Assembly: GCA_041739675.1 (NCBI GenBank)
Contig: JBGSNL010000088.1
Coordinates: forward strand, 1 to 21,105
Source: a bacterium
Lineage (GTDB): Bacteria; UBA10199; 2-02-FULL-44-16; DYJF01
Length of the DNA: 21,105 bases
Direction of reading: 5' to 3'
The notes under the pieces are model-generated. The model was given only the letters and a program-made list of their open reading frames with translations, ran no database searches and had not been told where the DNA came from. Of the stretch, positions 11,743-14,154 are shown in pieces; the first letter of the stretch is position 1, and each line of letters starts with the position of its first letter. Made by a program: the position numbers and the translations under genes.

Positions 11743-12501
11743 CTATTTTGCCAAAAGTTCGCGGGCGAGGTTAATGTAGCTCAAGGCACCCTTCGACCCT
11801 ACGTCATATAAGATTATGGGTTTGCCGTGACTTGGGGCCTCGCTCAAGCGGACGTTTCTGGGAATAATTGCTTCAAATACTGAATTATTAAAGTGTTTTT
11901 TGATTTCGTCTGAGACCTGGAAAGAAAGATTATTCCTTCCATCAAACATGGTCAGAACAATACCCCGAATCTTCAAATCGGCGTTGAGGCGATCACGAAC
12001 AAAAGAGATCGTCCTTTGAAGATCGGCCAGCCCTTCCATCGCATAGTACTCGCACTGGACAGGGATGAGAACGGAGTTGGCGGCGGTGAGGGCGTTGACC
12101 GTCAGAAGACCAAGAGAAGGGGGGCAATCTATGATCATGAAATCGAACCGGTCGGAGATAGCGGCAAGGCGATTTCGCAAAATTGTTTCACGTGAAACAA
12201 TTTCAACAAGTTCAATCTCGGCGCCGATCATGGCCGAACTGGCTGGCATGAGTTTGAGGTGTGGTATCTCGGTATCGACGTAAAGCGAGGGCAGATCTAC
12301 ATCAGAGAGGAGCGTATCATATATGCCGCGCTGAACGGAATATTTGTCGAATCCGATGCCGGTGGTTGAATTTCCTTGGGGATCAAGATCAATGAGAAGG
12401 GTTCTCTTCTCTGCCGCTGCAAGACACGCCGAAAGATTGATGGCCGTTGTCGTCTTTCCAACACCGCCCTTTTGATTACAAAGTGCAATGATTTCAGCCA
12501 T
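11743..12501 (-). CDS. parA: Chromosome partitioning ATPase ParA/Soj
   Basis: NQKGGVGKTTT, IDLDPQGN, IIDCPPSLG, PVQCEYYAMEG, IPRNVRLSEAPSHG. Confidence 0.97.
   Translation of the reverse strand: MAEIIALCNQKGGVGKTTTAINLSACLAAAEKRTLLIDLDPQGNSTTGIGFDKYSVQRGIYDTLLSDVDLPSLYVDTEIPHLKLMPASSAMIGAEIELVEIVSRETILRNRLAAISDRFDFMIIDCPPSLGLLTVNALTAANSVLIPVQCEYYAMEGLADLQRTISFVRDRLNADLKIRGIVLTMFDGRNNLSFQVSDEIKKHFNNSVFEAIIPRNVRLSEAPSHGKPIILYDVGSKGALSYINLARELLAK
12184..12199. promoter_or_regulatory. parS site (inside parA)
   Basis: Exact TGTTTCACGTGAAACA consensus; the palindrome extends to 24 bp (12180-12203). Confidence 0.9.
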
Positions 12502-12545
12502 GGCGAGTAATTATTCCCAAGGGGGGAGAAAAGCAAGCGGGAAAA

Positions 12546-12561
12546 TGTTTCACGTGAAACA
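12546..12561. promoter_or_regulatory. parS site (upstream of parA)
   Basis: Exact TGTTTCACGTGAAACA consensus about 45 bp upstream of the parA start. Confidence 0.92.
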
Positions 12562-12562
12562 A

Positions 12563-12757
12563 TTCGAACCTAAACCTAAGTGAGGTGGCTTTCGGGACTG
12601 TGGGGTTGGGAGTACGGTGTCGCCCCAACCTTACGGGGATTGGGGCGCACCTCGTCTCTCGGCGATCGTGTTATCATAACCATGGATACGATCGCCTCCG
12701 AGACGCCTCCCAACCCCACAGTCCCTACGCCACCTTAACTTCGATATAGGATTCTCA
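12563..12757. other. Structured element copy 1 (candidate ncRNA or ssDNA motif)
   Basis: Perfect 19-bp stem 12594-12612/12707-12725 closing a 3-way junction with two branch hairpins; same architecture and linkers as copy 2. Confidence 0.75.
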
Positions 12758-12779
12758 CGGGGATTAAACACCCCTGGTT

Positions 12780-12822
12780 GGCGGAAGTGGGCGACAAATT
12801 AGAGATGTCGGCCACTTTCGCC
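12780..12822. repeat. 17-bp imperfect inverted repeat
   Basis: GGCGGAAGTGGGCGACA (12780-12796) / TGTCGGCCACTTTCGCC (12806-12822), with one G-T pair and one G-G mismatch. Confidence 0.6.
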
Positions 12823-12850
12823 CTTATACGACGTGCGAGTGATCTCCCGT

Positions 12851-12917
12851 TCTCCCTCTCCCTTGCTTGCCCGCCGACGCTCTGATGGCGGGATGGGAGA
12901 GGGTGGGGGTGAGGGTG
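12851..12917. repeat. REP-like CCCTCTCCC...GGGAGAGGGTGGGGGTGAGGG element with an inserted mini-hairpin
   Basis: Stem CCCTCTCCC (12854-12862) / GGGAGAGGG (12895-12903) enclosing CCCGCC (12870-12875) / GGCGGG (12887-12892). Confidence 0.6.
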
Positions 12918-13020
12918 GTCAAGCGGGGGACACTTCTCCTGTTCACGAGGAGTTCATGCGAAAATGAGAAGCGCCCCCCCCATGGGTGAGACGAGAAGGT
13001 AACTATGCGATATCATTGCC

Positions 13021-13098
13021 TTATTGTTCGAGCAAGGTCGAGAACAATAAGCGTGCTTTTGACTCCCCCGCCGAATGGCGGGATCGCTCGAAGAATAA
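13021..13098. repeat. REP-like TTCGAGC...GTCGAGAA / TTTTGAC...GCTCGAA element with an inserted mini-hairpin
   Basis: TTATTGTTCGAGC pairs with GCTCGAAGAATAA (one mismatch); internal CCCGCC-GAAT-GGCGGG hairpin at 13067-13082. Confidence 0.5.
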
Positions 13099-13106
13099 AA
13101 TTTAAG

Positions 13107-13140
13107 ACCCGGCACTGCCATATCGGTGCCGGGTTTTTTT
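13107..13140 (+). terminator. Intrinsic terminator-like hairpin
   Basis: ACCCGGCAC (13107-13115) / GTGCCGGGT (13126-13134) running into a 7-T run (13134-13140). Confidence 0.65.
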
Positions 13141-13321
13141 CGATCCAAATCGTAGTCGGCTTTCGGAGCATGGGATTCATGGGTACGGCATCGTTTGCGC
13201 TTTACGGAGCGCAAACGTGCCTCGTGTCTCGACGGCCGCGCTATCATAGCCATAGATGCGGCCGTCTCCGACACGCCCCCTGAACCCCATGCGCCTACGC
13301 CGACTTCGACATGGGTTCTCA
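13139..13321. other. Structured element copy 2 (candidate ncRNA or ssDNA motif)
   Basis: 19-nt arms 13165-13183/13277-13295 (16 Watson-Crick pairs); same junction, branch hairpins and linkers as copy 1 but different stem sequences. Confidence 0.75.
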
Positions 13322-13413
13322 ATAAGCCAATAAATACAACGAATTAGGCGGTGATAATTTCACGCAACTATTTCGTGGCAGGGCCGATAACTATAATGAG
13401 GGAGGCACCTTCG

Positions 13414-14154
13414 ATGACTATCTCAATGCGGAACCTATTTTTGCCATTTATTCTCGCACTGACGATTGCTGCGCTTTGTGCGTGCAGCGAGTCGGGGCGT
13501 TCAGGATCTGGAATTCCCGGACCCAACCAGCTCATCTCGGAAGCTCAAGTTGAGAGAAACACGATCGTAAAAGACGTGTTAGGCGGGGCGCTAACAACTT
13601 CAATCGATCCGGTCGCGTTTTCATTTGATGATGTCGCCGTCCGCGCGATGACGGTCAACGTGGAATTTTCGACGACGATCAGCACGATCAATGAGTACTA
13701 TACGTTTAAGGGATCTGACGGTGCGGATTCGCTGACGATTAACGCGTCGGGAAATGTGGAAGAGATAGAAACGTCCGAGACGGGGTCCTCGATTCTGAAA
13801 TTTGTGCCACTCAACTTACTCATCCATTTTGAAAATTTCTTCTTCACAAATTCGTGCGGTGTTCAAGCAGTTCTCACCGGCGATATGGAATGCCGCGTGA
13901 AGGGTGATTTTATAAGAGAAACCGAAAATTTCAAGGGAACGGCGATGTGCACAAGCGGAACCTTTATTGCGCCCTCGGATATCATTTATTTCTTCGGCGA
14001 CATCGAACATAAGATACATCTTACCGTGAATGTGACCGCGGACGGAAACGCCTTCAATCTTGACAGTTATAACTTCTCGGGTTCCTTCTTCCTAGATAAC
14101 AGGATCGTGGCGATCGGCACCATCGACGAGGTGTTCACCTGTAACGTCGAATGA
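13414..14154 (+). CDS. Putative lipoprotein of unknown function
   Basis: GGAGG SD before ATG 13414; signal peptide MRNLFLPFILALTIAALCA-C with a lipobox-like Cys, Ser/Gly linker and beta-rich acidic body. Confidence 0.75.
   Translation: MTISMRNLFLPFILALTIAALCACSESGRSGSGIPGPNQLISEAQVERNTIVKDVLGGALTTSIDPVAFSFDDVAVRAMTVNVEFSTTISTINEYYTFKGSDGADSLTINASGNVEEIETSETGSSILKFVPLNLLIHFENFFFTNSCGVQAVLTGDMECRVKGDFIRETENFKGTAMCTSGTFIAPSDIIYFFGDIEHKIHLTVNVTADGNAFNLDSYNFSGSFFLDNRIVAIGTIDEVFTCNVE

Follow-up and report, generated by a model that had tools for sequence, protein, structure and literature searches.

Several classes of short repeats dispersed through bacterial genomes have been described, and the features outlined here are those given in the consulted parts of the cited sources. 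The bcr1 repeats of the Bacillus cereus group are approximately 155 bp long, are dispersed at positions which vary between strains, and adopt a cruciform-like fold in which compensatory changes maintain two stem-loops (PMC3184786); they are also accompanied by 5-bp direct repeats and are transcribed. REP sequences, tagged with GTAG or CGTC, are hairpins of 20-40 bp, and like BIMEs and REPINs they are palindromic, occur both between and within genes and form inverted heterodimers (PMC3733652, PMC6006769); in REPIN systems the RAYT gene is flanked by the repeat. The RPEs of Rickettsia are palindromes of about 150 bp that lie in frame in unrelated genes, and the parts of the two sources consulted name no mobilising enzyme for them (PMC10969869, PMC3733652). 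MITEs such as Chunjie of Geobacter uraniireducens are small, non-coding units with a stable fold which are found in operons (PMC3184786, PMC10969869).

The window, i.e., the whole stretch of 21,105 nucleotides analysed here, carries two members of a family, apparently uncatalogued, whose mobile palindromic elements are Y-shaped and have a tertiary contact under selection (Table 1). The fold consists of a long stem, a three-way junction, two arms whose loops pair with each other and a near-invariant GA-rich internal loop; the branched unit measures 146 nt and the repeat unit about 150 bases. Both copies occupy the divergent gap between parA on the minus strand and a 267-aa ORF on the plus strand. 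In the following, G000 denotes the genome from which the window derives, G001 that of a sister species, and C-numbers the contigs or copies therein.

Table 1. Features in and around the gap between parA and the 267-aa ORF, with positions given in the window
Feature	Position	Strand	Basis or remark
parA (AAA_31), left neighbour	11743..12501	-	oriented away from the elements
16-bp parS-type palindrome	12546..12561	.	abuts copy 1; context, outside the element
Copy 1 including outer arms	12563..12757	-	folding, repeat search, comparison with G001
Copy 1 core	12587..12731	-	P0, basal GTA/GAAA loop, P1, three-way junction, P3 and P2 arms
Copy 1 P0	12587-12589/12729-12731	-	3 bp
Copy 1 P1	12594-12612/12707-12725	-	19 bp, 19/19 Watson-Crick
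Copy 1 L2 kissing strand CCGT	12633..12636	-	loop-loop covariation
Copy 1 internal loop, C-GSA-G (12700-12696) against C-GA-G (12661-12658)	12658..12700	-	near-invariant
Copy 1 L3 kissing strand ATGG	12680..12683	-	loop-loop covariation
Member of a different palindromic repeat family (21 genomic segments)	12919..12985	.	between the two copies
Hairpin with T run, terminator-like by eye	13106..13140	+	none called here by the terminator scan; present in G001 too
Copy 2 including outer arms	13139..13321	-	directly after the terminator-like hairpin; site empty in G001
Copy 2 core	13158..13301	-	architecture as in copy 1
Copy 2 kissing strands	ATGG 13253-13250; CCGT 13207-13204	-	read from sequence
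267-aa ORF, right neighbour	13351..14154	+	no Pfam family; orthologue in the same place in G001

An earlier note made from the DNA of the window alone had reported two structured copies in this gap, and both were borne out by a sequence check and by folding, with 0/200 shuffled sequences equally stable in each test (z of -13.3 and -10.1 for copies 1 and 2 as plus-strand RNA, -13.5 and -9.7 as minus-strand RNA, and -11.7 and -9.3 as minus-strand DNA). Its description of helices that keep their length and are paired throughout holds for most stems: a base-by-base check finds P2a (4/4), P3a (6/6) and P3b (9/9) of copy 1 paired, and P2a, P2b, P3a and P3b of copy 2 perfect, whereas P2b of copy 1 has one extra bulged base (10 versus 11 nt) and P1 of copy 2 forms 16/19 Watson-Crick pairs, with two mismatches and one A.C that is a G.T on the minus strand. 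Read on the minus strand, the P3 arm comprises 6 bp, the internal loop, 9 bp and the 18-nt loop L3, the P2 arm comprises 4 bp, a bulged A, 10 bp and the loop L2 (CCGTAA in copy 1), and the junction strands measure 1, 1 and 3 nt. A further 4-bp helix (P3c), drawn in the earlier note as a GTTA/TAAC hairpin, was rejected; it is not family-wide, being 74.7% paired with one pair unpaired in 15/19 rows, and the region is instead the 18-nt loop which pairs with the loop of the other hairpin. The arms presumably keep fixed lengths because these two loops must meet.

A second parS-type palindrome lies at 12184-12199, inside parA, and the two are the only ones within two mismatches genome-wide. Between the copies, the gap at 12835-13140 is a stack of palindromes, namely a hairpin skipped by one contig of sequencing run X4, the 21-member repeat family (12919-12985) and a palindrome-hairpin-terminator block with about 90% identity to G001. 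A single sequencing run, guessed to be of RNA, showed no coverage of the copies, which bears on expression in neither direction.

In the genome of origin (1.9 Mb), an iterated nhmmer search with a cut-off of E ≤ 0.01 recovered at least 26 copies, some of them cut by contig ends, so that the pair in the window, while real, is a small sample of the family. The ends TTCGAWCC and GGRTTCTCA, which the earlier note gave for both copies, are indeed present in both; among the copies, however, they occur together only there, the outer arms varying from copy to copy, and the corresponding regex has three genome matches, i.e., the two window copies and a third (C4) outside the 26. A covariance model built from 19 copies of this genome (R1) matched 19/41 relatives and 22/73 genomes of the phylum, and one built from 98 matches (R2) matched 33/73 genomes of the phylum, with 0 to 39 matches per genome and none in 40/73, as well as 10/101 sampled genomes of the Nitrospiria class. 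One Nitrospiria genome (G041) has 13-15 copies, and was the only one of 101 matched by R1 in a sample of its phylum. Further, a pattern scan of a genome collection yielded eight stretches, five of them confirmed by the model and three not, under the record titles Bdellovibrio sp., Myxococcales and Nitrospiria. In metagenomes R1 matched 32 of 80 loci taken from at least 119 pattern stretches, and 30/80 were kept after two plain hairpins had been dropped. The family is found in several bacterial groups. Two patterns gave no match in viral contigs, and blastn gave none in plasmids and phages. The earlier note did not recognise a known RNA in the element, and Rfam returned no match on either window copy at E ≤ 5 and nothing on the elements at ten further loci at E ≤ 0.5, and a tRNA/tmRNA scan of the window found none. 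A literature search with coverage of few subscription journals and no supplements found no published description of the family.

The genome of origin also contains branched elements with other interiors, here termed types II, IV and V, which often abut the element described above (type I) or are fused to its remnants. Type IV measures about 220 bp (C43:10520-10740 and seven other sites) and type V about 190 bp (C7:179-365, C81, C87, C33), the latter with a GTA/GAAA foot as in type I; both lie directly against the 5' end of type I, and in one case (C35) a type IV copy occupies the middle of another REP-like palindrome.

Comparison with the sister species shows how the copies behave at orthologous sites. 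Seven of the 26 have syntenic flanks in 885 kb of G001, and the search for empty sites proposed in the earlier note found two among these seven (window copy 2 and C80); of the others, one is shared, one is a remnant, one holds a different copy in the opposite orientation and two hold unrelated repeats. At the site of window copy 1, the outer arm ends are shared by G001, where a type II element lies between them. A number of sites (C6, C43, C48 and the one upstream of parA) are conserved among relatives. In the genome of origin three genes contain in-frame copies, on either strand, namely a pseudopilin gene (in its leader, +135 bp relative to G001), mutL and a radical-SAM gene, and the pseudopilin ORFs of G023 carry an in-frame insertion too. 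Between co-directional genes, sense and antisense orientations are balanced, at 6 versus 6 in the genome of origin (7/26 unclassified) and 22 versus 25 in other genomes (36/120 unclassified), by automatic, ORF-based calls that are rough and misclass window copy 1. The neighbouring genes have no common function. Doublets are head to head (minus then plus) in 16/17 cases, mostly as pairs of subtypes and several from the same two genomes; same-strand neighbours account for 1/17 doublets, and two occur in Nitrospiria-class genomes. What is seen here is a mobile repeat rather than a single-locus RNA gene, because its copies are gained, lost and replaced between orthologous positions in a dispersed, multi-copy and lineage-patchy family, because it shows no sense bias and needs no coding capacity, because copies lie in frame within genes, and because its doublets, in its own phylum, stand head to head. 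The suggestion of the earlier note that this might be a 'non-autonomous mobile element recognised by structure' finds support in its multi-copy and patchy occurrence, the gain and loss of sites, the in-frame insertions and the lack of an Rfam match; its other suggestion, an undescribed ncRNA, is unsupported in the form of a single-locus RNA or riboswitch.

Two loci deserve separate mention. The mutL region carries this element in G000 (C64) and an unrelated palindromic repeat in G001 (L343). A G001 copy at first taken to lie in frame within a thiE-thiD fusion was rejected as such, as it lies between the two genes, where its GTAG foot can provide a stop codon for thiE.

The purine riboswitch, the SRP Alu domain and natural hammerheads likewise have a three-way junction with two arms joined by a kissing pair. 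The element shares the junction and the kiss between L2 and L3 with purine-type riboswitches, and this architecture, together with the sites kept between relatives, would fit a host regulatory or structural RNA, such as a riboswitch-like leader or an mRNA stabiliser, duplicated before many genes. However, its arms are far longer (14-17 bp) than in those RNAs, its short junction strands form no long conserved pocket, it is dispersed and without an Rfam match, and it does not take a sense leader position before related genes. Further, its neighbours are functionally unrelated, its orientations are equal, copies lie inside coding frames on either strand, more than half of the phylum genomes have no match, and in the sister species the sites are frequently vacant or filled by different repeats. 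A host RNA of this kind is hence quite improbable.

Against the background of the described repeats, again as far as the consulted parts of the sources go, the element is closest in its workings to the REP/BIME, RPE and bcr1 repeats, and lacks features that define MITEs and REPs or REPINs. With bcr1 it shares size, dispersal, non-conserved positions and a compensated fold; in contrast to bcr1, no duplication is seen beside it, and it has a loop-loop pair, of which the part of the bcr1 description compared makes no mention. With REP/BIME/REPIN sequences it shares the palindromic form, the occurrence between and within genes, the inverted doublets and the insertion within other palindromes. GTAG stands at the 5' foot in 12/19 copies of the genome of origin; across the family it is not fixed, with counts of G61, T41, A45 and G67 of 97. 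It differs from a REP in being a branched, pseudoknotted unit rather than a simple hairpin, and from REPINs in that no RAYT gene is flanked by it and the tested Y1 subfamily does not co-occur with it. The likeness to RPEs extends to length, palindromic form and in-frame positions in unrelated genes; by comparison with their description, the element occurs in free-living lineages of several groups, is mostly intergenic and shows tertiary covariation.

Its small size, comparable to that of MITEs (PMC3184786, in the part consulted), its non-coding nature, stable fold and occurrence in operons, as well as one subfamily of G000 with common short termini (CAAAAC/GTTTTG), could be read as those of an ordinary MITE, mobilised via terminal inverted repeats by a DDE transposase. 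Yet it has no family-wide terminal inverted repeat or direct repeat and is GC-rich, not AT-rich as in Chunjie-type MITEs. The outer arms pair but differ in sequence among copies, and the conserved part is the interior and not the ends. No target-site duplication was seen, by eye, in six two-ended copies or at filled and empty sites, where comparison with relatives diverged by about 29% could miss old ones; no transposase flanked by such ends was found, nor a DDE_Tnp_1 match in G000. These differences make the MITE reading extremely improbable.

The counts of wobble pairs place the fold on the minus strand, the earlier note having written it out on the plus strand. In the minus-strand reading, the stem cells of the genome of origin contain 19 G.T against 4 A.C, and family-wide there are 100 G.T against 29 A.C among 4430 cells, a 3.4-fold excess with G.T making up 2.3%. 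Additionally, the minus strand folds lower in 19/22 copies, and its loops are purine-rich. Over the 97 distinct rows of an alignment fitted to the model, 91.6% of stem cells are paired, as compared with 36-48% in slid controls, and all 61 pairs vary on both sides. The outer stem is variable; constancy is highest in the internal loop and at the junction A and the bulged A (88-97/97 members).

The two arms are linked by bases 5-8 of L3 (ATGG), which are complementary to bases 1-4 of L2 (CCGT) and include a T.G pair possible only on the minus strand. Among 54 distinct loop pairs, two of them misparsed, L3 position 8 and L2 position 1 are GC in 44, CG in 7 and AT in 1, and L3 position 6 and L2 position 3 are TG in 47 and TA in 3; with corrected parsing the former pair holds in 49/49 rows (GC 41, CG 7, AT 1). 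The seven rows with C-G are spread over five places of a tree, and their union in a single clade is rejected (p-AU 0.0026), on a tree of 77 columns with long branches and mosaic copies. Across all 97 rows, poorly aligning subtypes included, the L2-L3 positions are 84.3% paired, and their covariation of 0.217 exceeds that of shuffles (0.147±0.012; 0/500) and of slid controls (at most 0.104); two count measures of the same covariation were equalled by 30/500 shuffles. An independent regex re-extraction was noisier, with C-G in 3/63 rows, several of them misparsed, and among its 10 held-out rows seven have ATGG with CCGT or CCAT and none has the C-G variant. By eye, loop-loop complementarity is kept with other letters in type II (GCC with GGC) and in subtype Ib (CGG with TCG, CCG with TGG). 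The kissing pair and the GA loop point to selection on a tertiary fold. As this fold is kept by matching base changes, something would therefore recognise the folded strand.

The argument of the earlier note that stem covariation is in itself the mark of selection stands only in part: the GA loop, the strand asymmetry and the kiss indicate that the fold is selected, but the double changes in the stems fit copying of one arm onto the other. On a minimum spanning tree linking 19 copies, there are 124 double changes between different Watson-Crick pairs, 52 of them of transversion type, beside 39 one-sided changes (15 G.T, 4 A.C and 20 other) and 14 other changes. The 5' outer arm of C80 is an exact inverted copy of host G-F-T-L codons; in C48 both outer arms have changed in step between species though the G001 copy has lost its cap; and two strains show one-sided differences in P1, the expected intermediate of arm copying. 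Template switching can generate compensatory changes, according to the part consulted of PMC8794818, and much of the stem covariation is probably DNA copying of this kind. Since nested stems can covary by such copying alone, only asymmetric loops and pseudoknot pairs are counted here as signs of selection. The basal loop is erased in a few copies (C72, C78, C25), whereas the internal GA loop is not.

Carried to its limit, the same process would leave neutral palindromes, whose covariation is all arm copying, which spread by ectopic recombination and whose fold goes unrecognised. This would account for the excess of double changes, transversion doubles among them, for the C48 remnant with compensation in situ and for the high homoplasy among copies (four-gamete incompatibility at 35/87 site pairs within modules and 170/348 between them), and template switching provides a precedent. 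However, arm copying should erase the asymmetric loops, the junction A and the bulged A, which persist in nearly all members, and it leaves the covariation of the two loops, the wobble bias of one strand and the head-to-head doublets unexplained; neutral palindromes are thus highly improbable.

Recombination appears in a different form at C6, where G000 and G001 are up to 97-98% identical over a 600-bp island that surrounds the copy and includes coding DNA on both sides, while four-fold sites in the same two flanking genes differ at 99/184 and 83/156. In 674 kb of alignment (mean identity 70.9%), three islands reach ≥92% over 300 bp; this is one of them, and the other two carry no such element. 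Among 12 orthologous-flank pairs, no case of co-conversion other than C6 was found. As a single case, the island is suggestive of homing, and DNA uptake by a competent host would explain it equally well. Further, in two of three near-identical orthologous pairs the differences cluster in the 18-nt L3 (4/5 and 4/6), none of them in the kissing bases. On the strength of the covarying kiss, the C6 island and this clustering outside the kissing bases, one might envisage small selfish elements spread across phyla, in which a pseudoknotted strand, be it a catalytic or guide-like RNA or ssDNA, cuts or invades DNA and spreads through gene conversion of a homing-like kind, without its own transposase, a reading we consider unlikely.

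The earlier note had also proposed a search for co-occurring HUH/Y1, reverse transcriptase and nuclease genes, and no mobilising gene was found. Of 193 neighbouring ORFs, 53 were excluded as likely spurious or already recognised, and the 140 scanned contained no transposase, RT, HUH or integrase domain; at 131 element loci there was no Y1 match and no recurring neighbour ORF of unassigned family. Approached from the Y1 side, 0/32 loci carried a copy, and 1/12 further loci had one about 1.1 kb away. The Y1 family as a whole is uninformative, as it occurs in 35/41 relatives, and the subfamily of the genome of origin is found in 12/22 element-positive and 29/51 element-negative genomes, with no match in the copy-rich G070, G053, G032 and G069. 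In the genome of origin, which is 94.6% complete, there is no IS110, RVT_1, DDE_Tnp_1 or DUF559 match, no gene is enclosed by element-like arms, and neither of two tyrosine recombinases lies beside copies. No cognate IS with shared ends was found in G000 or beside copies, metagenome-assembled genomes often losing IS elements. GIY-YIG genes, present in 68/73 phylum genomes, are likewise uninformative.

Small stand-alone GIY-YIG genes do occur beside palindromic repeats at C33:38540-38900 (L364), C29 (L365) and C85 (L366), the C33 gene having CGTC-type REP-like hairpins on both sides. CGTC REPs are described, in the part consulted of PMC3733652, as lacking a transposase, and the C33 gene is a possible partner of these.

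On balance we lean towards a mobile palindromic element, non-autonomous and active as a folded single strand, with structure-recognised ssDNA mobility provided by a putative enzyme in trans. Such an enzyme, most plausibly an HUH-like cutter and joiner of ssDNA as on REPs, would read a shape, made up of the junction, the GA loop and the kissing loops, rather than a terminal sequence, and the unit would be copied into tolerated places such as gaps between genes, protein linkers, the prepilin leader and other palindromes, with new copies often landing just 5' of an oppositely oriented one. The stems would stay perfect mainly through correction of mismatches from the opposite arm, by template switching or hairpin repair, and the same correction could extend the outer arms into host DNA. 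Copies would exchange parts by recombination, and at least one may have passed from one species to another together with about 600 bp of flanking DNA. Against this reading stand the searches for a mobilising gene, empty-handed among the neighbours, at the Y1 loci and for IS110, RVT_1, DDE_Tnp_1 and DUF559, the weakness of the GTAG foot family-wide, and a replication-strand bias that is not significant (9/26 copies on the G-rich strand and 17 on the other, by a weak proxy with weak local skew). So do the same-strand neighbours and a search for near-identical filled and empty alleles which found no such pair.

As regards ssDNA in particular, the kissing loops, the T.G wobble and the GA-rich loops are equally typical of RNA. 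The active molecule could thus be a small, pseudoknotted, possibly catalytic, selfish RNA, with an RNA stage in which it is produced by read-through transcription and processes itself, followed by re-insertion by an enzyme in trans. The three-way junction with an L2-L3 kiss that has undergone repeated compensatory switches, the fixed T.G in that kiss, the excess of G.T over A.C on one strand, the purine-rich asymmetric loops and the complementarity kept by eye with other letters in other subfamilies all accord with this. Yet G.T makes up a very small share of stem cells, sense bias is lacking, no promoter or terminator was called by a scan of 12400-13500, no RVT_1 was found in G000, no Rfam family matches, and the junction strands are unlike the hammerhead core; an RNA form is therefore a tentative and somewhat unlikely alternative to the folded ssDNA element favoured here.

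Under either form of the strand, the family offers a testable handle, having a defined fold, a near-invariant GA loop and a kiss that arm copying leaves unexplained, and its natural compensatory variants provide controls for assays by probing, cleavage and pull-down. A new kind of mobile element would be at hand if the active form proved to be a catalytic RNA or a homing ssDNA. For the reading of covariation in repeats more generally, covariation of nested stems may be DNA copying, and asymmetric loops and pseudoknots are the informative parts.

Some further observations concern the window and its counterpart in the sister species. Positions 593-931 of the window include about 230-340 bp whose identity to G001 is as high as 99%, the species average being 71%, and this island, which spans a 69-aa minus-strand ORF (594-803) and a hairpin, is either a recent transfer or a strongly constrained element. 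A second stretch of G000, C79:45554-46023, comprises a candidate HU-like gene, assigned by eye, with its upstream region and is 94-96% identical to G001. The G001 site orthologous to the window (L154:1448-2400, G001:C79) holds two small ORFs between two copies of one terminator-like hairpin, and by eye these resemble a candidate nucleotidyltransferase/HEPN toxin-antitoxin pair.
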